25,334 nt of DNA from Myxococcota bacterium (lineage in GTDB: Bacteria; Myxococcota; JACRCW01): assembly GCA_040752415.1 (NCBI GenBank), contig JBFMGU010000157.1, positions 1-25,334 of the forward strand. The letters are read 5' to 3'. Positions 9,704 through 20,448 of the stretch are shown piece by piece (position 1 is the stretch's first letter; each line of letters begins with the position of its first letter). The translations under genes and the position numbers were made by a program. The notes under the pieces are model-generated. The model saw only the letters and a list, made by a program, of their open reading frames with translations, was not told the DNA's origin and did no database searches.

Positions 9704-11217
9704 CGCGACCCATGCAGGACGCGCGCGACCGCCTCGAGCCGTTGTGGCCTCCTCTCCTGGAGAAGGCGCTGTGGCTGCTGTTGGGGTGCGGCGCCACCCT
9801 GCCGCTCCTGTTGCCGGAGCGCATTGCCAGCGTGGACCTGTGGAACCACGTGGCCATCCACGAGGTGCAGCGCCAGGCCCTGCGGGGTGAAGGCCACATG
9901 GTGCCGTTCTACGCGCTGCACCTGGACGCCTATCCCTACTATGCGGGCTACGTGGTGCTGGGCCTGTGGCGACTCCTGCTCCCGCCGGAGATGGCCGCCC
10001 ACGCCGCCCTGGCCAGCGCGCACGTGTTGTGGGTAGCGGCGGTGTGGTGGTTGTGTCGGGTGTGGGGTTGTCGACGGGAATTGGCGCTGCTGGCGTTTGC
10101 CGGGTGCTACAGCATGTCCACCTGGTACGGCTTCCTCAGCTACGCGCTGGCGCTCCCGCTCGTCGTGGTGGCGGTGGTCTGGGCTACGCGCCTGATGGAT
10201 GCGCCGCGCGCGGACCGCGTGGTGATCACCGCGCTGGTGCTCCTGCTGCTCTACGAGGCGCACGTGGAATCCTACGCCGCGGGCGGGGTGCTGGCCGGCG
10301 GCACCGCGCTGTTGCACCGCGACCGGTGGCGACGTCTCTCCTGGCTTCTGGCTGCCTCCCTCCCCTCGCTGCTGCTTGCCGCGTGGTGGTGCGGCACCCT
10401 GGATGACGACGAGAAACCGAAGAACCTGCAGTACCTCTACGGCCCGCTGAAGGACCGCCTGGGTGAGTGGCACGCGGCGCACCTGTGGCAGGAGGGCTGG
10501 GCGGGGATGGTGCCGGGCCTCGTCCTCACGGTGGCCGCCGCGGCGTTGGTGCAGGCGCGCTGGGGCATTCCGCTTCCGCCGCGGATGCGCCCCGCGTTGG
10601 GGTGGGGAGTGGGCGCGTTGGCGCTGCACCTGCTGTTGCCCAAGGAAGTGCACGGATCCACGTGGGGACTGAGCCTGCGCACCGGGCCGTTCCTGGTGCT
10701 GGCGGCGCTGCTGTGTTGGCAGTGGCTCCCGCGGTGGTGCCTGCGGGTGGGAATTCCCGTCGTGGCGGCGGTGTGCCTGCTTCGCGACGTGCAGGCCTGG
10801 TCCTTCCACCAACGCTTCTCCGAGTACACCGCGCCGGTGGTGGAGCAGCTGAAGCGGACGCCGCCGGGGGCCCGCGCGGTGGTGGTGAACCGCGACGATC
10901 GTGTCCTGGGCAGCCGGGTGCATCACCTCGGGCACGTCGCCGCGTTGTGGGTGGTGTACGGGGCGGTGACGCGGCACATCTTCGAGTTCGCCGGCTCGCA
11001 CCTCGGGGTGGTGCGGGAGATCTGGTTGCCGCCCGCGTCGGTGACCATGGACGAGCCGCCGGACCGCTGGGCGCACCGCCTGGACCGCATCCTCCTCCAG
11101 GGTCACGACGAGGAATTCGTGCAACGGGCCCTGGCCGCGGGCTACGAGCCCATCTGGCAGCATGACCGCTGGATCATGTTCGCGCCGGCGTCACCGTGGG
11201 ATGTTTCCAAGCGGTAG
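9700..11217 (+). CDS. polytopic membrane protein, possibly a GT-C fold glycosyltransferase
   Basis: About 10 hydrophobic segments. The first TM is followed by a loop with D.WNH; later motifs YGFLSY.LALPL and a soluble C-terminal domain. Alternative start at ATG 9712. Confidence 0.6.
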   Translation: MTRPMQDARDRLEPLWPPLLEKALWLLLGCGATLPLLLPERIASVDLWNHVAIHEVQRQALRGEGHMVPFYALHLDAYPYYAGYVVLGLWRLLLPPEMAAHAALASAHVLWVAAVWWLCRVWGCRRELALLAFAGCYSMSTWYGFLSYALALPLVVVAVVWATRLMDAPRADRVVITALVLLLLYEAHVESYAAGGVLAGGTALLHRDRWRRLSWLLAASLPSLLLAAWWCGTLDDDEKPKNLQYLYGPLKDRLGEWHAAHLWQEGWAGMVPGLVLTVAAAALVQARWGIPLPPRMRPALGWGVGALALHLLLPKEVHGSTWGLSLRTGPFLVLAALLCWQWLPRWCLRVGIPVVAAVCLLRDVQAWSFHQRFSEYTAPVVEQLKRTPPGARAVVVNRDDRVLGSRVHHLGHVAALWVVYGAVTRHIFEFAGSHLGVVREIWLPPASVTMDEPPDRWAHRLDRILLQGHDEEFVQRALAAGYEPIWQHDRWIMFAPASPWDVSKR

Positions 11218-13119
11218 CACCACGTTTCCCTCACGGTCCTCCACGCGGTGCTGGACCTCGACGTCACCCGGCATCTCCAGCGTCGCGTCCACCCACTGCG
11301 GGAGACCGGCTTGCGCGTATTCGTCGGGCCAGGTGCGGCGGACGCAGGTCTCTCCCGCGCAGAACACGTGGGTGAGCGGCGTGGGGTTGCGGTTGGCAAC
11401 CACGTCCAGGCGCACCACCACGCGCACCTGGTTTCCCGTCGAGAACGCACCCGCGTGCGTCACCGTGCGTTGCATGGGCCCGTGCGTGAAGGAGCGCGGG
11501 GAGATGGGCTGCGCGGCCCGTTTCATCCGCTCGCGCTCGACGTGGAACCACAGCGCCAGCGGTTTTCCGTCGGGGGAGGTGGTCAGCAGCACCGTCTCCC
11601 AGCCCGGGGGCGGAGCGCCGGACGCGGTCATGCCGGTGACCACGCGGAAGTCCAGTGCGCCATCGACGTCGCGCGGGCGCTCGCGGATGACGTCGACGTG
11701 ACGCCCGGTCACCCACGCCAGGTGCACCAGGTTCCACAGGTTGAGATGCGCCTCGTCGACGCCGGCGTCCGCCTGCAGGAGCGCGCGCGTGGTGTTGTTG
11801 CCCCACCGCTCCACTGCGGCACGCATCAGCTGCTCCGCCACGGAATCACGACGGTCCGGCGTGTGGCGCAGGTATCCCTGCTGAGCCCACAACAGCACCG
11901 GCCCCACCGCGATGCGCTCTGGCAGCACCGGAACGCCCCACTGGATGGCAAGCACGCTCAGCACGGAGAATGACGTCGTCACCAGCGCCGCGGCGCGACC
12001 ACGCAGGAGCCATGCGCCACACAGCGCGGCGTAGACCAGCGCGCCAATGGTGTAGCGCGCGTCCTTGTTGGGAAAGAACGGCCACGCCAGCACGGACACC
12101 GCCAGCGAGGTCACCACCCACGTTCCCACGTCGCGCGCGCGCCGGAGCAGCAACACCGCACCCACGAGCGCCAGCATCCAGAGCGGTCCGCGCAGCGTGA
12201 TGTCGGCGAGCCAATGCAGGTGCGCGAGCAACCCGTCGACGTAGGTGATGGCATCCCCTTCGCGCGCCGCGTCGGCGGACTGGGAGGCGAACATGCGCGA
12301 GATGCCCCGCCCGACGCTGACCGCGTAGGGACCACACACCAGCAGCGCGGCCAGCGCGGCCCAGCCCAGGTTGCGCCGCCGCTCCCGACCTTCATTCCCC
12401 CGCCACGCGAGCACGAGCGACCACAAGAGCGGCCCAACGACAAACACCGCCGGCACCGCCGCCTTCACCACCGCCAGCGCACCGGTGCCCACGCCGGCGA
12501 GCACCGCGGGTCCGCGCCAGCGCATGAACCGCGACCACACCACGCACGCCGCCGTGGCCGCGGTGAGCGAGAGGATGGGCAGATCCAGCAATGCGTCCTT
12601 GGCCAGGTCCGCCACCATGGGGCTCGCCAGCGTCAGCGCGGCGGCCGCCACCCCCGCCCACGACGAGCCCAACGCCATCCGACCCAGCGCGAACATGCTC
12701 ACGACGAGGAGCGGGGTCCACAGGAGCACACTGGGCAACGCGGTCAGGTCGGGCGCGCGACCCCAGATGGCGTGCAGGATCGTCGACGGCAGGTAGCCCA
12801 CCACGCCGTATTGCTGGTCGTGCCAGGCCAACGTGTCGCCGAGCTTCTGCAGGGTCCAGGGCTCTTCGCGGAGGAAGGCGAGGAGGCGCAGCGCATTCCA
12901 GGCGTGACGGGCCTGGTCCCACTGCAACGCCTGCGTGTCGACGTGGAGCCACCATGCGCCGGAACAGATGGAGAACACCACCAGCAGCGCAAGGACCCGT
13001 TGCGGCGCGCGGCCTTCATCCCGTTGCGCGGGAAGCACGGAGAACGCCGGAGCGTCCGACGACGGAAACCAAGCGCGCCACACCGCGCTGTGATGCACGA
13101 GCGGCGGAGGTGGTGTCAA
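11191..13119 (-). CDS. ArnT/PMT-like (GT-C) membrane glycosyltransferase
   Basis: WDQARH after the first TM, AAALTLASP, LLDLP, G.LAVVK and PNKDARY motifs, multiple TMs and a C-terminal soluble region. Start uncertain (TTG 13119, GTG 13098 or GTG 13083). Confidence 0.75.
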   Translation of the reverse strand: MTPPPPLVHHSAVWRAWFPSSDAPAFSVLPAQRDEGRAPQRVLALLVVFSICSGAWWLHVDTQALQWDQARHAWNALRLLAFLREEPWTLQKLGDTLAWHDQQYGVVGYLPSTILHAIWGRAPDLTALPSVLLWTPLLVVSMFALGRMALGSSWAGVAAAALTLASPMVADLAKDALLDLPILSLTAATAACVVWSRFMRWRGPAVLAGVGTGALAVVKAAVPAVFVVGPLLWSLVLAWRGNEGRERRRNLGWAALAALLVCGPYAVSVGRGISRMFASQSADAAREGDAITYVDGLLAHLHWLADITLRGPLWMLALVGAVLLLRRARDVGTWVVTSLAVSVLAWPFFPNKDARYTIGALVYAALCGAWLLRGRAAALVTTSFSVLSVLAIQWGVPVLPERIAVGPVLLWAQQGYLRHTPDRRDSVAEQLMRAAVERWGNNTTRALLQADAGVDEAHLNLWNLVHLAWVTGRHVDVIRERPRDVDGALDFRVVTGMTASGAPPPGWETVLLTTSPDGKPLALWFHVERERMKRAAQPISPRSFTHGPMQRTVTHAGAFSTGNQVRVVVRLDVVANRNPTPLTHVFCAGETCVRRTWPDEYAQAGLPQWVDATLEMPGDVEVQHRVEDREGNVVLPLGNIPR

Positions 13120-13123
13120 ACCG

Positions 13124-14614
13124 TCACTTCCAGATGGCGCGCTCCGGGTCGGTGGCGCGGCACACGTGCAGCTCTCCGACGACAAACCGCTCCAGTCCCT
13201 CCGCGCACGGCTCCGGCTGGATGTCCACGGCTTCCGCGAGGTGGTCGCGGTAGCCCTGCTGGTACGCGCGGATGCGTGCCGGCCGGGTGCTCGTGGCCAC
13301 GCGGATCTCCTCGTTGGAGAGGAAGGAGATGGGATACGCGGTCCAGTAGTCGGAGAGCGCGTGGTGGATGCCCTGGCGTTTCAGCTCGTCGACAACGGGT
13401 TGGAAGTGCGGCGCGGGGGGATGCGTGTATGCCTCACGCCAGAACGTCACATGCGTGCCGAGCTGCAACACCGCCGCGACGACACACACCGCGGACACCA
13501 CCGCTCGCGCACGCGGCAGGTCCTGCATCACCAGCTCCGTGATGCCCACCAGCAGCAACAACGCGAGGAGGATGAAGCGCACCATGCCACCGTCGGGCGC
13601 CCAGGGAAGCACCAGCACAAACGCCAACATGCTCTGCACGCCCGCTCCGACGAGGTACAGCGCATGCCCGCACGACGCCAACGCCGGCACACCCCCGCGC
13701 AGACGACGCAGCGTGAGCCCCGCGAGCAGACACCCGCCCAGTGCCAGCAACAGGTACATCACCCCCGCCATGCCCGGCGTCCCGGATGGCCCATCCGCGC
13801 GGATGCCCGTGTGTCGCAGCTCACCGGGCGCCACGCCCAGCAGCGCGGGCAGCAGGTTCTCGACGAGAAACACCAGGTTCCGCGCCGCGGACTCCAGCGT
13901 GGGCGGCTCCAGCCACGGGCGCGTGCCGCGGTAGTCGACGGAACGACGGGCCAATTCCACGAACACCGTGTTGATGACGACGTAGGCTGCCAGCGTGCGC
14001 GCCCGTCGCACGAGGTAGGCGCGGGACAGTTGACGCTCGAAGGCCAGTTCCACCACGAGCAGCGCGGTCACGCCAAACAGCGTGAGCTCCCGGTTGAGCA
14101 CGCCAAACGCGATCACCACGCCGAGCAGCGCGCCCTTTTGCCGCAGCTCCCACAGCAGCAGGATCCAGAAGAACGGCTGGATGTTGCCGCCGGTGGACTC
14201 GACGAGTCGCGTCCCGGTGACCACGGAAGGGAGCACCAGCCACGACGAGGCGGCGAGCGCCTGCCAGGGCGTCAGGCCCGCATCCCGCACCAGTTGCCGC
14301 AGCAGCAGCGCCAGCGTGGCAAGGTTGAACAGCAGCTCGATGCTCTTCAGCACCGCGATGGATGCCCCGGTGACGACGAAGATGGGCGCGGCCAGGTACG
14401 CGGTGGGCGCCATCATGTACTTCTGGCCGTACATGAAGATCGGGAAGTCCTCGAGGTGCGCGAGGCGCAGCGCCATGAGGCCAATGGTGGCCTGGTCGGC
14501 GTCGAAGTGGATTTCCGGGAAGAGCAGGAAGGGAAGGCTGCGCAGGAAGATGAACACCGCGCCCACCGCCCACGCTGTGAGGATCATGCGTTGGCTCGAC
14601 GGGTTCGTGTCCAT
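13124..14614 (-). CDS. GT-C-like membrane glycosyltransferase (uncharacterised family)
   Basis: FDADQATIGLMA...FPIFMYGQKYM...AYLAAP loop after TM1, many TMs, C-terminal L...GI....SDYWTAY.ISFLS.E. Confidence 0.7.
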   Translation of the reverse strand: MDTNPSSQRMILTAWAVGAVFIFLRSLPFLLFPEIHFDADQATIGLMALRLAHLEDFPIFMYGQKYMMAPTAYLAAPIFVVTGASIAVLKSIELLFNLATLALLLRQLVRDAGLTPWQALAASSWLVLPSVVTGTRLVESTGGNIQPFFWILLLWELRQKGALLGVVIAFGVLNRELTLFGVTALLVVELAFERQLSRAYLVRRARTLAAYVVINTVFVELARRSVDYRGTRPWLEPPTLESAARNLVFLVENLLPALLGVAPGELRHTGIRADGPSGTPGMAGVMYLLLALGGCLLAGLTLRRLRGGVPALASCGHALYLVGAGVQSMLAFVLVLPWAPDGGMVRFILLALLLLVGITELVMQDLPRARAVVSAVCVVAAVLQLGTHVTFWREAYTHPPAPHFQPVVDELKRQGIHHALSDYWTAYPISFLSNEEIRVATSTRPARIRAYQQGYRDHLAEAVDIQPEPCAEGLERFVVGELHVCRATDPERAIWK

Positions 14615-14674
14615 GCAGGGACGCGGTGGGGCGGCTTGTCAGCTCCCAACGCGGTGTGCTCCGGTCCGGGGCGC

Positions 14675-16165
14675 ATGACGTTAGTGACCACCCCGCAGGT
14701 GAACAAGGGTCCGTTTCTCGGCGTGGGACGCGCGGCCTGGACCCTCAGCGTGCTGGTCCTGTGGCTGTGCCAGGGCATCCTCACCCGCGCGGCGCTGGAG
14801 CGCTTCCACTACGAGGACCTCGCCGAGTCCATCCGCAATCCCTACTGGCTCTCCCACCACATCCTCTACGACGGAACCTCCTCCAACGTCGGCTGGTACG
14901 GCACGCTGCTCGCGCTGTACGAGACTTTCGGCTTCTCGTTGTCGACGGCGAAGGTCTTCCGCTGGGCGCTCCAGCTTCCGAGCCTGCTGTGCCTGGCCGC
15001 GTTGCTCCGTCGGCACCTTCCGGAGAACCGCGGGCTGGTGCTGCTGTGGCTCGTCGGGCTCTCGCCCACGCTGCAGTTCTTCACGTCCATGCAGACCAGC
15101 TTCGGGATCGACCTGCAGCTGGTGCCCATCCTGCTGTGGCTGCTGGTGCAACCCCACGTGTTCGATGTCGGGCCGCGCGGCGGGCTGTGGAATGTCGTCG
15201 TGGGCGTGCTGGTGATGTGGGGCTCGTTCTCCTATCCGGTGATGCTGCTCTACGGCCCTCCGCTGGCGGCGCTGTACCTGTTCCTGTGGCACCGCTCCGG
15301 GACGTCGCCACGCGCGCTGGTGCAGGGTGTCGTCGGGGTGGTGGGGGGGATGGCGGTGGTGCTGGGCGGCGCGTTGGCGTGGCTGCGCTACCCCATGAAC
15401 CTGCTGCGCGACCCGCATTCCGGCGAGTGGAGCCTCTTCGTCGGCGGGGGCGGGGCGATGCACCTGCATCCGCGCGTCCTGCACTGGGGCATGGTGAAGT
15501 CGTTCACGGACCTGTTCGTGCGACCGCTGAGCTACGCGTTCGACCTCCCGCACGTCGAGTTCGGGACGCCGCTGGGATGGATTGGCGTCGGAGTCATCAC
15601 CGTGGTGACGCTGCAGCAGTATCGCCAGCGCTGGTCCCGCCGCGACGTCACCTTCTGGGTCCTTTCCGTCGCGCTGCTGGCCTTCTTCGTCGGGCTCATC
15701 ATGCCGCACACGTCGCAGAACACGCCGGGTCTCCGTCGCGCCACGCCGATGCTGGTGGGCGCGTGGGCCGCGGCGGGTGTGCTCCTGGCCCTTCCCCCGA
15801 CGGAGAGGGCCGCGCGCGCGATGTGGCGGGCGTGCCAGCTGCTGGTGCTGCATCACGTGGTGGTGTTCCCGCTCAACGTGGTGGACCTCGCGCAGCTGCC
15901 GCGCAGCAATGATCACTTCCTGGGGCTCGCCGGCACGCCGTCGGAGAGTCTTTCCGTCGTCATGGAGCGGGTGGCGCGCGGGGAGCCGCTGCGGTGCGAG
16001 AAGCTGGGCGGGGAATGCCGCTACTCGGAGATCTACGGCGCGCTCTCCGGGTACCGACGGTGGAATGACCTCCCGCTGCTCAAGGTGACCGCCTGGGATC
16101 CGGACCGCCAGGAGCTCCTCGAGCTGACGCCGTCCGTCTGGGAGAGCTATCGGCTGGCGCACTGA
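14675..16165 (+). CDS. polytopic membrane protein, possibly a GT-C-like glycosyltransferase
   Basis: Coding part of ORF 13166..16165 from ATG 14675, divergent from the previous gene with a 60-bp gap. Acidic loop after TM1 (HYEDLAES), FGFSL..AK, LSPTL..F, PGLRRA and about 10 TMs. Confidence 0.6.
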   Translation: MTLVTTPQVNKGPFLGVGRAAWTLSVLVLWLCQGILTRAALERFHYEDLAESIRNPYWLSHHILYDGTSSNVGWYGTLLALYETFGFSLSTAKVFRWALQLPSLLCLAALLRRHLPENRGLVLLWLVGLSPTLQFFTSMQTSFGIDLQLVPILLWLLVQPHVFDVGPRGGLWNVVVGVLVMWGSFSYPVMLLYGPPLAALYLFLWHRSGTSPRALVQGVVGVVGGMAVVLGGALAWLRYPMNLLRDPHSGEWSLFVGGGGAMHLHPRVLHWGMVKSFTDLFVRPLSYAFDLPHVEFGTPLGWIGVGVITVVTLQQYRQRWSRRDVTFWVLSVALLAFFVGLIMPHTSQNTPGLRRATPMLVGAWAAAGVLLALPPTERAARAMWRACQLLVLHHVVVFPLNVVDLAQLPRSNDHFLGLAGTPSESLSVVMERVARGEPLRCEKLGGECRYSEIYGALSGYRRWNDLPLLKVTAWDPDRQELLELTPSVWESYRLAH

Positions 16166-16247
16166 ACGTCGTCACCGTGGCGGGCGGAACGCCGACGCGT
16201 GGCGCGACCCCGTCCGTGGGAACAGGGGATCCCCGAGGTGCGCTGCC

Positions 16248-16276
16248 TTGACACCCTCGGAACGCGCTCCTAAACA
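16248..16276 (+). promoter_or_regulatory. putative sigma70-type promoter for the graspetide-like locus
   Basis: Perfect -35 TTGACA (16248-16253), 17-nt spacer, imperfect -10 TAAACA (16271-16276), about 50 nt upstream of ATG 16327, which has an AAGGGGAG RBS. Confidence 0.5.
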
Positions 16277-16326
16277 CCGCTCCTCACGTGCCCATTTTTC
16301 GGCACTGTGAAAGGGGAGCGGTACCC

Positions 16327-17379
16327 ATGACGAAGGTCACCGGCAGCGTGAAGGATTTCCAGTCGGCCATCCGCAAGTTCCAGAAGGCGGACAGCGCCAG
16401 CGCCCACAAGCTCACCAAGGCAGAAGTCTCCACCGCGCTGGAGATCCTCCAGAAGAACGGCGTCAGCGCGCCGGAAAAGGCGGCCGCCAAGGACGTGCTC
16501 AGCAAGGCGCAGCTCACCAAGGGCGCCAAGGAGCTGCTGGAGAACTTCGTCGCCGACGCGGGCAGCACCAGGCCCGAGGGACCCATCAAGCTCAAGCCGG
16601 AAACCCGCGCCAAGATGACCGAGGTGTTCCAGAAGGCGAACCTCGCCGGGACCATCCCGTGGCGCGACCAGCACTCCGTGCCCGCGGGCCTGGCGCTCCG
16701 TCGTGAGCCGCTGTTCGCGGAGCGCCACCCCGACGGCTTCAGCTACGTGGCCCTCATTCCCAACGGCAGCGTGGACCCGCGTCACATGGGCGCCAAGGAT
16801 CCCAACAAGGCCACCTACTTCTTCGTCGAGCGCAGCGGTGGCTTTGCCGGCCTGACCCAGGTGGCGGGCCCGTTCCAGATGGCGGACCTGAACACCGGCA
16901 AGACCGCCAAGGACGTGAAGGCCATGCTGCAAGGCAACGACGAGCTGCGCTGGAACGTGTTGCGCTCCGCGTTCCCCAGCTACACGCGCTCCGCGCCCCC
17001 GGTCATGGCCGACGTGCGCAAGCTCGACGACGGCAACTTCGCCGTGAAGGTGCAGCTGGTGCACTTCCGCACGCGCGAGGTGCAGGGTGAGCAGGAGATC
17101 AAGATCAACGCCGACGGCAAGGTGCTGGGCAAGCTCGAGGGTGGCTTCGAGACCGAGGCGGTGAGCGAGATCCCAGGCGGCGGCGTCACCACCATGGCGG
17201 TGGGTGAGGAGGGCGGCGGGGGCGGCGGTGGTGGCGGCGGCGCCTCGACGGAGGCCGTGGGTGAGGAGGGTGGCGGGGGCGGCGGTGGTGGTCGCGTGAC
17301 CACGCTGGCGCTGGGTGAGGAGGGCGGCGGCGGCTGGCGCGGGGGCGGCGCGGTCACGCTGGCCATCCCCGAGAACTGA
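16327..17379 (+). CDS. large putative graspetide precursor protein with C-terminal plesiocin-type TTxxxxEE core repeats
   Basis: 350 aa, RBS AAGGGGAG, no evident signal peptide. C-terminal tail after LGKLEGG contains ETEAVSEI, TTMAVGEE, STEAVGEE, TTLALGEE and VTLAIPEN, separated by Gly-rich linkers. The adjacent gene is an ATP-grasp ligase. Confidence 0.8.
   Translation: MTKVTGSVKDFQSAIRKFQKADSASAHKLTKAEVSTALEILQKNGVSAPEKAAAKDVLSKAQLTKGAKELLENFVADAGSTRPEGPIKLKPETRAKMTEVFQKANLAGTIPWRDQHSVPAGLALRREPLFAERHPDGFSYVALIPNGSVDPRHMGAKDPNKATYFFVERSGGFAGLTQVAGPFQMADLNTGKTAKDVKAMLQGNDELRWNVLRSAFPSYTRSAPPVMADVRKLDDGNFAVKVQLVHFRTREVQGEQEIKINADGKVLGKLEGGFETEAVSEIPGGGVTTMAVGEEGGGGGGGGGGASTEAVGEEGGGGGGGGRVTTLALGEEGGGGWRGGGAVTLAIPEN
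17149..17376 (+). repeat. array of core-like motifs (T/S)TxAxGEE with poly-Gly spacers
   Basis: Full copies at 17188-17211, 17245-17268 and 17299-17322; degenerate copies at 17149-17172 and 17353-17376. Confidence 0.9.
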
Positions 17380-17406
17380 TTCCTCGTCGGTCCTTTGCGG
17401 AATCCT

Positions 17407-17441
17407 GGGCCAGGCGCTCCTGAAGGCGGGGTGCCTGGCCC
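17407..17441 (+). terminator. stem-loop between precursor and ligase (weak terminator or mRNA stabiliser)
   Basis: GGGCCAGGCGCTCC-tgaaggc-GGGGTGCCTGGCCC forms a 14-bp stem with two G-U pairs, followed by a poor U tract (GTGTGTTTA). Confidence 0.6.
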
Positions 17442-17480
17442 GTGTGTTTAGGGACCTTTCGCCATCATTCGGAATGCACC

Positions 17481-18512
17481 GTGCGCATTGGCATCTTCGG
17501 CTCCCAACACGACACCCAGACCCAGGCGGTGGCCAGCGTCCTCAAGAAGAAGGGCGCCGACGTGGTCCTGGTGGACGCGCAAGGCCTCAACCGCGGTGAG
17601 CCGGTCACGTTCGACGGGGAGCGCTACACCTGGAAGGGCCAGCGCCTGGACGACGTGCACGGCTGGTACCTGCGCCACATTGCCGACCCCTACGCACCCG
17701 CCTTCGAGGCCGACGGGCAGTACCACCTCTACCGGGATTGGCTGGTGGACTACATGCAGCGTCGGGAGCGCAGCGCGTTCCAGCTCTCCTGGCTGCTCAC
17801 GCTGACCATGCAGGGCATCCCGGTGGTGAACCCGCCGGAGCACGGCAGCGTGGCGCAGCTCAAGGCGTTGCAGCTGGCGGCGGCGCGCAAGGTGGGGCTG
17901 GCCATCCCGCGCACGCTCATCACCAATGACCCCCACGCGGTGCGGCAGTTCGCCAAAAGCGTGGGCGAGGTGGTGTACAAGCCGTCCATGGGCGGAGGTC
18001 TGTGCAAGCCGCTCACCGACGAGGACCTGGCGCGGTTGGAGCTCATCACCGCCGCGCCGGTGACGTTCCAGGAGCGCGTGCGCGGCACCGCGGTGCGGGT
18101 GACCGCCATTGGGCAGAACCTGGTGAGCTGTGTGCGGATTCCGTCGGAGTATCTCGATTACCGCGCGGACCCCGAGTACTCCGGAGGCAAGCAGGTCTAC
18201 GACCTGGCCACGTTGCCCATGGACATCCCGGACAAGTGTCGCGCGTTGATGCGCGAGTGCGGGTTGTTGTTCAGCGGCATGGACTTCATCCAGCGCGACG
18301 ATGGGTCCGTGGTGTTCCTGGAGGCGAACTCCTCGCCGATCTACCTGGACGTCGAGCGGAAGACCGGCGTGCCGATCACCGACGAGTTGGCGGGTTACAT
18401 CCTGAAGCTGGCCAACCGGCCCGCGGACTACCAGCGCGCGGTGCAGGAGGCGGGGCTGGTGAAGAGCTTCTGTTCCTACGCGTATCCGTTCGCGCCCACG
18501 GAGTTCACGTAA
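17481..18512 (+). CDS. ATP-grasp ligase of the RimK/graspetide synthetase type (PsnB-like)
   Basis: GTG start (VRIGIFGS..D), VVNPP, K..QL.AA..VGL.IPRTLITNDP..VR.F, VYKPSMGG, APVTFQERV.G..VRVT.IG, LDYR, GLLFSGMDF, VFLEANSSP. Confidence 0.88.
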   Translation: MRIGIFGSQHDTQTQAVASVLKKKGADVVLVDAQGLNRGEPVTFDGERYTWKGQRLDDVHGWYLRHIADPYAPAFEADGQYHLYRDWLVDYMQRRERSAFQLSWLLTLTMQGIPVVNPPEHGSVAQLKALQLAAARKVGLAIPRTLITNDPHAVRQFAKSVGEVVYKPSMGGGLCKPLTDEDLARLELITAAPVTFQERVRGTAVRVTAIGQNLVSCVRIPSEYLDYRADPEYSGGKQVYDLATLPMDIPDKCRALMRECGLLFSGMDFIQRDDGSVVFLEANSSPIYLDVERKTGVPITDELAGYILKLANRPADYQRAVQEAGLVKSFCSYAYPFAPTEFT

Positions 18513-18513
18513 C

Positions 18514-18559
18514 GTTGGTGGCGACTCGGGGTTGGTGGCGACTCGGGGTTGGTGGCGAC
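18514..18559. repeat. tandem 17-bp direct repeat GTTGGTGGCGACTCGGG, about 2.7 copies
   Basis: Units at 18514-18530 and 18531-18547, plus a partial unit at 18548-18559. Confidence 0.9.
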
Positions 18560-18857
18560 ATGGCCCCCCCACCCGGCCGCCCCTGATTTCACCGCTTTCA
18601 CGACGACGGCGGCCGACCTCCCCCACGGCGTGGGGAGGCGTAGATGTGCCGCGCCGGTGGGACGCGCAGATCATTCCGCGGCACGGGACCCAAGGATGCC
18701 TTGTGCCGCGTCGAGTCCAATGAACCCCACCGGCGCGGCACATCTACGCCTCCCCACGCCGTGGGGGAGGCCGGCCGCCGTCGTCGTGAAAGCGGTGAAA
18801 TCAGAGGCGGCCGGGTGGGGGGGCCAGATCGCCACCCAACCCCGACCCGCCACCAGC
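18531..18857. repeat. long imperfect inverted repeat (about 130-bp arms, 64-nt spacer), REPIN/MITE-like
   Basis: 18531-18661 is the near reverse complement of 18726-18857, e.g. CTGATTTCACCGCTTTCACGACGACGGCGGCCG vs CGGCCGCCGTCGTCGTGAAAGCGGTGAAATCAG. It fills the gap between two convergent genes. Confidence 0.92.
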
Positions 18858-18858
18858 C

Positions 18859-20448
<1,590 letters not shown>

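Follow-up and report, generated by a model that had tools for sequence, protein, structure and literature searches.

Enzymes that build peptides synthesized by ribosomes and then modified after translation (RiPPs) usually depend on a leader peptide carried by the substrate. In plesiocin, a group 2 graspetide from Plesiocystis pacifica, that substrate, PsnA2, is reportedly a short peptide of <100 amino acids (aa). Published work reports that the N-terminal leader LFIEDL of PsnA2 is required for activity and activates the ATP-grasp ligase PsnB (complexes 7DRM, 7DRN and 7DRP), that leader residue Phe15 enters a hydrophobic pocket of the enzyme, and that the core adds to PsnB binding via its Glu residues (10.1101/2021.03.09.434688). 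An engineered PsnB fused to the leader (LP_PsnB) modifies leaderless cores (10.1101/2021.03.09.434688; PMC13003496). Here, we describe a precursor gene and a ligase gene found in contig JBFMGU010000157.1 of the Myxococcota bacterium assembly GCA_040752415.1. The window analysed is the whole stretch of 25,334 nt (positions 1 to 25,334, ~70% G+C). We consider it probable, though well short of certain, that the pair is a group 2 graspetide operon in which the cores lie on the tail of a folded 350-aa protein and the ligase is activated by a leader motif of its own.

Large graspetide precursors already have a precedent in corallotide, characterised in 2026. In this group 15 system from Corallococcus, the ~22 kDa CorA consists of a helical N-terminal domain of ~86 residues and repeated cores, the ligase CorB is of the TIGR04187 type, KxxxD isopeptides are formed that a 2-oxoglutarate (2OG) oxygenase later hydroxylates, and the system invariably includes a beta-lactamase-like gene (PMC13097080). 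Carter et al. assign long or large precursors to groups 15, 34, 35 and 41, and their >20,000 predicted graspetides may include the family described here (PMC13097080); the group definitions and supplements of Ramesh et al. 2021 may also already list some of these precursors. CorA is therefore a precedent for the large size of the precursor, one part of the architecture for which an earlier reading of this DNA, made from the sequence only, had known of no characterised example. The window system resembles corallotide in being myxobacterial and in having an unusually large precursor with repeated cores. However, it has no KxxxD cores and no 2OG-Fe(II) oxygenase or beta-lactamase-like neighbours, no K[IV].A[DE]DP repeat of the corallotide type was found in the 350-aa open reading frame (ORF), and the precursor is larger than CorA, with two extra alpha/beta modules.

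The precursor gene (16327–17379, + strand, ATG to stop, stop included; 350 aa) is followed on the same strand, after a gap of 101 nt, by the ligase gene (17481–18512, + strand; 343 aa). The GTG at 17481 is preferred as the ligase start because homologues begin with M-R-[IV]-G-I-F-G; a GTG at 17442 is also open. The Gly-rich tail of the precursor (aa 273–350; 17143–17376, + strand) contains five core-like octapeptides with poly-Gly linkers between them. These are the degenerate ETEAVSEI (17149–17172), the full cores TTMAVGEE (17188–17211), STEAVGEE (17245–17268) and TTLALGEE (17299–17322), and the degenerate VTLAIPEN (17353–17376), in which one Thr-Glu pair is possible. The two genes and all five repeats had been recognised in the sequence-only reading, and they are as described there. 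Expressed as the group 2 repeat, TT....EE occurs twice exactly and ST....EE once, with E-T....E-I and V-T....E-N as the degenerate forms, and the full copies share with PsnA2 the ending A-[IVL]-G-E-E. Tandem Repeats Finder reported a 54/57-nt unit present in ~3.1–3.2 copies (17176–17363). When the 11-Mb genome was searched for [ST]T.[AS][VIL]GE[ED], three matches were in this ORF, two were in one small ORF in contig C59 and two were singles elsewhere. As the pattern is otherwise clustered only in the C59 ORF, we conclude that the core cluster in the 350-aa ORF is not a chance occurrence.

The degenerate last copy has a counterpart in RcpA/RcpB of Rheinheimera, a group 2 system in which one PsnB-like ligase acts on TT....EE and variants such as VT....ED, with up to five water losses (PMC11626197). 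As VT....ED takes an ester in RcpA, V-T....E-N could also take one, and the likeness supports partial stapling of V-T-L-A-I-P-E-N. In contrast to the window precursor, RcpA is short and leader-bearing, with cleavage at a GG site and a C39 transporter in the system.

For the ligase, Pfam returned only the generic RimK and GSH-S ATP-grasp domains. The NCBIfam models for graspetide maturases (TIGR04187, 2e-36; MvdC, 5e-25; MvdD, 1.2e-23) were placed well ahead of those for RimK (4.6e-14) and LysX (5.7e-9). Among solved structures, the best relative was PsnB (7drm-7drp, 4.6e-34), followed by 9bou, MdnC, MdnB, AMdnB and CdnC, while RimK reached only 6e-4. PsnB aligned only to aa 3–306 of the ligase. 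PsnB numbering was mapped using an inferred chain offset of 20, which is supported because every named PsnB residue falls on the expected letter. With this inferred offset, Arg72, Arg101 and Arg213 of PsnB correspond to R65, R95 and R206 of the ligase, and the leader pocket residues Tyr171, Ile193, Leu196, Val201 and Phe203 to Y166, L186, I189, V194 and F196 (for the roles of these PsnB residues, see 10.1101/2021.03.09.434688). R95, within R-E-R-S, is invariant and on the same inferred numbering is the counterpart of Arg101, which is specific to group 2a and binds the second Glu, and R206 aligns with the Arg of PsnB V-R-V, Arg213, which escorts the ring-forming carboxylate. The DYR motif noted in the earlier reading is part of L-D-Y-R (aa 225–228), and the D226-Y227-R228 loop (18156–18164, + strand) aligns with the PsnB D-F-R loop, with Tyr in place of Phe/Trp; D226, R228 and R206 are invariant among the aligned ligases. 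PsnB's three Arg residues, its D-x-R loop and its hydrophobic pocket for the leader are thus all retained, and these comparisons support the assignment of the ligase as a putative graspetide ATP-grasp macrocyclase of group 2, plesiocin-like.

The Pfam result would also suit an alpha-L-glutamate ligase of the RimK/LysX type, which would lengthen or decorate the Glu-rich tail without closing any rings. However, the graspetide models beat RimK by >20 orders of magnitude in E-value, LysX likewise scores far below them, PsnB outranks RimK among the solved structures, and the ligase has both the D-[FWY]-R loop specific to graspetide enzymes and an equivalent of Arg213. An enzyme of this kind, which the sequence-only reading had named as an outcome that would count against its call, is therefore scarcely credible. 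Matches to the ligase at E ≤1e-10 were present in 197 of 401 genomes of the window's phylum, a tally that includes one unpublished genome (G195), from which no other result here derives.

Whereas the cores of plesiocin are on a short peptide, those in the window follow 275 residues that are predicted to fold. An AlphaFold2 model of the precursor, built from a 50-row alignment, had a mean predicted local distance difference test (pLDDT) score of 80, with most of aa 1–275 at >90 and aa 279–350 at <50; aa 85–275 modelled by themselves reached 92. The model thus predicts three confident modules, in agreement with the ~270 aa of folded protein proposed earlier, and a disordered core-bearing tail. 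Module A (aa 1–84; 16327–16578, + strand) is a four-helix N-terminal domain (helices at aa 6–20, 31–43, 48–60 and 65–78; pLDDT mostly 79–96). Module X (aa 85–190; 16579–16896, + strand) has one helix, a four-stranded sheet and the conserved HPDG...DPNKA...ERSGGFAG...AGPF, and is the best-conserved part of the family. Module B (aa 191–272; 16897–17142, + strand) has two helices and a four-stranded sheet. With local hidden Markov models (HMMs), modules A and B each match relatives independently.

Pfam and NCBIfam returned no family for the precursor or its modules, and Foldseek found no match at E ≤1e-3 for the whole model or for X and B alone. The weak top rows from Foldseek were M4/M36 metalloprotease propeptides (3nqy_A, E 4e-3, probability 0.77; 4k90_B), latexin and PepSY-like proteins. 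The best VIA-align scores were Z 5.8 for module B, to a designed cystatin fold, and Z ~7 for module A, to generic helical repeats. These matches are too weak to assign the modules to a propeptide, PepSY or cystatin-like fold family or to give them an inhibitor function, and no Pfam match at E ≤0.1 supports an emfourin-like identity for module X. No description of module X was found in the graspetide papers cited here.

A leader is not apparent in the 350-aa protein. Neither F..Y..P nor the looser [FLMI]..[YF]..P was found anywhere in it by pattern search, and no group 2 leader was found ahead of the cores. A leader-like motif is instead found in the ligase. In the alignment, PsnB has no match for a conserved C-terminal extension (aa 312–343; 18414–18509, + strand) that makes the window ligase ~30 aa longer than its tail-less relatives. 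The extension ends in K-S-F-C-S-Y-A-Y-P-F-A-P, of which S-F-C-S-Y-A-Y-P-F (aa 329–337; 18465–18491, + strand) is the leader-like part. A search at E ≤1e-40 yielded 92 ligase clusters, and the closest (P0135–P0193; 47–60% identity, 97–100% coverage) nearly all have the extension. Across 25 aligned tail-bearing ligases, F330 and Y333 never vary, and conservation is ≥90% at A334, P336 and F337. Of 61 long ligase tails, 44 contain F..Y..P, whereas 300 shuffles that preserve composition averaged 0.6 such tails and never exceeded 4. When a quick maximum-likelihood tree was built from the ligase bodies without their tails, the tail-bearers fell into one 56-row clade (SH-aLRT, the Shimodaira–Hasegawa-like approximate likelihood ratio test, 99). 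All but three of these rows were labelled tail-bearing (53/56), and one of the exceptions was a regular-expression labelling miss. The tail-bearing clade, of ~53–59 sequence clusters, includes several phyla, and the extension is absent from the ligases of its sister clade.

Ligases that are 45–50% identical to that of the window adjoin precursors built of TT.A[VIL]GEE units. The tail-less ones, mostly from Archangium, Pyxidicoccus, Myxococcus and related metagenome-assembled genomes (MAGs), adjoin multi-core precursors of 70–350 aa with N-terminal leaders such as S-F-V-K-Y-E-S-P, P-F-T-R-Y-E-L-P and N-P-F-T-D-Y-A-L-P, which share the pattern F..Y..P and are in this respect comparable to LFIEDL of PsnA2. 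Beside tail-less ligases, strict F..Y..P preceded the first core in 30/60 precursors from the genome set and 11/15 from the metagenome set, rising to 44/60 and 14/15 with the looser form. Beside tail-bearing ligases, neither the strict nor the looser form was found in any precursor (0/12 for each). As the pocket and the core-binding Arg residues are kept, the motif is on a flexible-looking extension and the substrate has no apparent leader, we propose that the leader is built into the enzyme. The extension thus appears to be a conserved leader-like feature in what would be a natural leader-on-enzyme arrangement. While the known leader-fused ligases are laboratory constructs, the fusion proposed here would be natural, C-terminal and conserved in a clade. 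A literature search, largely without subscription journals, found only engineered versions and no natural fusion of a leader to a ligase. The self-primed ligase is the newest element of the system and is still unproven.

The pairing of ligase and precursor was examined at 12 loci with tail-bearing ligases (the window, L069, L070, L071, L072, L074, L076, L077, L150, L151, L152 and L156), which are labelled as Sericytochromatia, Anaerolineae, one Chlamydiae-labelled MAG and Deltaproteobacteria/Myxococcota MAGs. In all 12, the ligase gene is preceded on its own strand by a core-bearing ORF, and the encoded precursors measure 69–397 aa. At L152, from a metagenome (67% G+C), a homologous 357-aa precursor that has eight cores and is near-identical to P0004 shares 36% identity with the window precursor over 96% coverage. 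The gene next downstream, on the same strand, encodes a tail-bearing ligase that shares 49% identity with that of the window. The pairing of a large precursor with the ligase, whose conservation the sequence-only reading had set as a check, is therefore conserved and recurs at L152, and large core-bearing proteins were also found beside homologous ligases at, for example, L069, L070 and L072. The N-termini of the precursors at these loci are mutually unrelated. A-X-B modules are present in L152 as well as in the window, a helical region of 250 residues in L069 (372 aa), a beta-rich domain in L070 (397 aa) and Pro-rich stretches in L074, L076 and L077, and there is almost no N-terminal region in L071 and L156 (69 aa). 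In L072 (4129–4923) and L151, both in Anaerolineae-type contigs, it is WXG100-like (Pfam E 1.2e-4, below the cut-off) and is fused to plesiocin-type cores. WXG100 is a fold of type VII secretion substrates.

If the adjacency in the window were incidental, the ligase could serve the small precursor in C59 and the 350-aa tail would be left unmodified. The C59 ORF (7651–7998, + strand) encodes a small two-core precursor with a leader-like P-F-F-S-Y motif and has no ligase adjoining it. However, a tail-less paralogue of the ligase in contig C514 (11966–13147, − strand; 36–37% identity) is a better match for a leader-dependent partner. As the large pair also recurs at L152 and a core-bearing ORF is upstream of the tail-bearing ligase at every one of the 12 loci, an incidental adjacency is very improbable. 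The C59 precursor and the C514 ligase could form an unlinked, leader-dependent system in the same genome.

Recognition could instead follow corallotide, with module A docking the ligase and the extension serving as a dimer contact or in autoinhibition or stability. This alternative stays alive because CorA residues 1–86, a helical domain, bind CorB in pull-downs (PMC13097080). Module A is helical and similar in size to the CorA domain in the AlphaFold2 model, and is common to the corallotide-like K[IV].A[DE]DP proteins P0094 and P0115. At the end of its last helix, x-F-[VI]-x-[DE] is conserved and loosely like the PsnA2 leader. However, module A also occurs in core-less proteins, none of which has a ligase within ~8 kb (0/11 loci), and the precursors of other tail-bearing ligases (WXG100-like in L072, helical in L069, beta-rich in L070, Pro-rich in L074, L076 and L077, and almost without an N-terminal region in L071) have unrelated N-termini. 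We regard corallotide-like docking as unlikely.

Several observations weigh against a graspetide operon with a self-activated ligase. The NCBIfam scores for the ligase are all below the curated cut-offs (for TIGR04187, 125.8 against 350 bits), and the ligase is for this reason considered a divergent member of the graspetide maturases. The motif was defined after the leaders and tails had been viewed, so the motif counts are partly post hoc. Even the loose motif is missing from 16 of the 60 precursors that adjoin tail-less ligases; of these 16, some are truncated ORFs. An 11-residue profile made from 37 leaders lifted only 13 of 63 ligase tails over the 99.9th percentile of shuffles. The window tail scored 7.3 in this profile compared with −9.9 (SD 5.8) for the null, a difference of ~3 SD that is suggestive and not decisive. 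A complex prediction for ligase aa 1–311 with its own aa 312–343, run without controls, scored 0.13 against a mark of 0.32 and counts on neither side. Module A of the precursor ends in a conserved x-F-V-x-D that loosely resembles LFIEDL, and the substrate may thus have a leader after all. The 12 loci include close kin (L151 with L072, and L156 with L071) and are thus not 12 independent cases. The closest relative of the ligase in the genome set (G029, 54% identity) pairs with a precursor of just 69 aa, and the large carrier is therefore not fixed in the clade. No protease or exporter was found near the pair, the neighbours being membrane proteins like protein mannosyltransferase (PMT) and an esterase. 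Finally, the gene anatomy, the homologies, the predicted folded and disordered regions, the recurring pair and the motif distribution are observations, whereas the chemistry as a whole, comprising ester formation, self-activation by the ligase tail and inhibitor function, is what we infer from the sequence.

In the operon as we propose it, F330..Y333..P336 on the extension would fill the ligase's own leader pocket, in cis or across a dimer, and keep the enzyme on. With the leader on the enzyme, the substrate would need none, and a whole protein could be the substrate. Any accessible TT....EE array, including one on a folded protein, would then be modifiable, and the disordered tail could reach the active site. 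The ligase would phosphorylate core Glu side chains and close Thr/Ser-to-Glu ester rings, so that each of the three full cores could hold two nested rings and each degenerate copy at most one. The inner Thr-Glu ring would form before the outer ring, as in plesiocin. The product would be a multi-headed serine-protease inhibitor, either displayed on the carrier or released by proteolysis; judging by analogy, it is expected to inhibit serine proteases the more strongly the more heads it has.

A different fate for the product would apply if the 350-aa protein were only a giant precursor, from which a remote protease cuts the Gly linkers to release small, active graspetides while the folded part is discarded. 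This would follow the usual RiPP logic: poly-Gly linkers flank each core, and Gly-Gly is a common cleavage site in graspetides (PMC8939145; PMC11626197). However, no peptidase or C39 transporter is present in the window's neighbourhood, and plesiocin is reported to become more potent as more cores are linked (PMC13097080). Core-less relatives retain the same modules together with Gly-rich tails, which argues for an independent function of the folded part. We consider this outcome doubtful, though the least so of the alternatives. A giant leader, one of two options offered in the sequence-only reading, is likewise not favoured, because the modules occur in core-less relatives without a ligase (11/11) and the recognition motif is apparently on the ligase. 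The graspetide system call itself is supported in each of its testable elements.

A broader proposal, which we advance tentatively and hold to be slightly more doubtful than credible, is that PsnB-like ligases of one whole clade, represented in Myxococcota, Sericytochromatia, Anaerolineae and other MAGs, captured the precursor's leader motif onto their C-terminus and became leader-independent, making the cores portable onto arbitrary proteins. Chemists lift the leader constraint by fusing the leader to the enzyme, and if the proposal is correct, nature did likewise in this clade. RiPP chemistry would then act as a general form of post-translational protein stapling, applied to A-X-B, WXG100-like and other unrelated domains, and the use of full-size folded proteins as substrates would be explained. 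Mining rules that require short, leader-bearing precursors might systematically miss such systems, and a leader-free ester-stapling enzyme would be ready for use in protein engineering.

When aa 1–275 of the precursor were used to query 1.84 billion representatives with HMMER, 111 clusters were returned at E ≤1e-3, and among the 401 genomes of the window's phylum the precursor had a match in 47. Judged from these matches, the A, X and B modules are a small, combinatorial family found mainly in Myxococcota. Architectures were assigned using local HMMs for the three modules together with core patterns. A-X-B followed by plesiocin-type cores was found in the window protein and P0066, and A-B with plesiocin-type cores in P0004. 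P0005 and P0006 combine module A, microviridin-type cores, module X and plesiocin-type cores, while in P0032 (789 aa) the cores are interspersed among folded domains. P0094 and P0115 have A-B with corallotide-like K[IV].A[DE]DP repeats, ~14 A-X proteins have one T-[LM]-A-[ICV]-P-E motif inside module A, and many A-X(n) and A-B(n) proteins have no cores; several of these have Gly-rich tails. X with microviridin-type cores is a further architecture. The carrier-domain family is thus modular and displays three graspetide core types. A search with P0094 matched four of the 401 genomes, its scoring crowded by low-complexity candidates, and a locus search with P0005 returned no match among the genome contigs or metagenome contigs. 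P0005 may share a contig with the ligase P0168, as the longest contig recorded for each has the same length (31602).

Genes for X with microviridin-type cores were directly upstream of ATP-grasp genes in 6/6 loci. In these loci (L052–L057, from G252, G273, G309, G235, G286 and G222), precursors of 312–471 aa have module X at the N-terminus, then a PFF.RFL leader and 7–16 T.K.PSD..[DE] cores, and are accompanied by two ligase ORFs in five loci and by one in L056. Like the multi-core microviridins (AMdnA), they have many cores per polypeptide and neighbouring ATP-grasp enzymes. They share module X with the window protein but keep the leader between X and the cores, whereas the window protein combines plesiocin-type cores with a single ligase and lacks a leader. 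A ligase was adjacent to the corallotide-like repeat proteins in 2/3 loci, and the one locus examined for A-X with an embedded T-M-A-C-P-E (L042) was directly upstream of a ligase (1/1). The core-less A/X/B proteins had none within ~8 kb, and none was near A with microviridin cores and X (0/3 loci), where contigs were short. The modules therefore appear to be an independent protein family that acquired graspetide cores together with the ligase in some lineages.

Other members of this family and other precursors differ in how cores are placed. L042 (5541–6452; contig C5 of G032) and P0009–P0013 are ~300-aa A-X proteins with one T-[LM]-A-[CI]-P-E in a loop of module A, the same octapeptide type as the last one of the window protein, and such proteins may have a single ester staple within a folded protein. 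In L043/L137 (contig C20 of G034), one precursor, which adjoins two ATP-grasp ORFs, alternates K-V-R-A-D-D-P and TT.A[VL]GEE units; core types therefore mix within one polypeptide. A core-bearing precursor in a Polyangiaceae MAG (L094, 4404–4946) has an apparent N-terminal lipoprotein signal (a hydrophobic stretch and A-C) and includes V-T-[ML]-A-I-P-E-[DE] units like the last octapeptide in the window.

Two further relatives are in the window's own genome. A core-less A+X paralogue of the precursor (C477, 17579–18499, − strand; 50% identity) has a tail rich in Gly and Arg and is not accompanied by a ligase. A second giant precursor of the graspetide type, a ~580-aa ORF with a long charged/helical N-terminus (C256, 1545–4453, − strand), has the leader K-P-F-F-A-R-F-L and at least 12 T.[KR].PSD..[ED] cores matched by regular expression (~16 by eye). 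It lies directly upstream of an ATP-grasp gene whose product is 30% identical to the window ligase.

Upstream of the precursor gene, a purine-rich ribosome-binding site, aaaggggag (16310–16318, + strand), lies 8 nt 5' of the ATG. The promoter proposed for the pair in the sequence-only reading stands only in part. TTGACA (16248) and TAAACA are present with a 17 nt spacer (16248–16283, + strand), but a sigma-70 consensus scan of 16000–18900 returned no sites, and the promoter is thus an unverified candidate. A partial terminator is often present between RiPP precursor and enzyme genes. In the window, the intergenic region contains a stem-loop of 15 pairs, 11 of them G-C, followed by a T-rich run (17406–17452, + strand), one of three terminator-like sites that a scan found in the region compared with 1.8 expected from shuffles. 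It is a possible partial terminator that could set the ratio of precursor to enzyme transcripts.

Further upstream, 11191–16165 contains three big multi-pass membrane ORFs, two of which have weak PMT/PMT_2 matches below the Pfam cut-offs, and a Ser-rich esterase-domain protein is encoded downstream on the opposite strand (18859–20448). There is no evident connection between these neighbours and the graspetide pair. Directly 3' of the ligase stop, an exact 17-nt unit repeated 2.7 times (18514–18559) precedes a 117-nt inverted repeat (18545–18661 and 18726–18842; 95% complementary, 64-nt spacer), which could form a large hairpin terminator or represent a small mobile or repetitive extragenic palindromic (REP)-like element.

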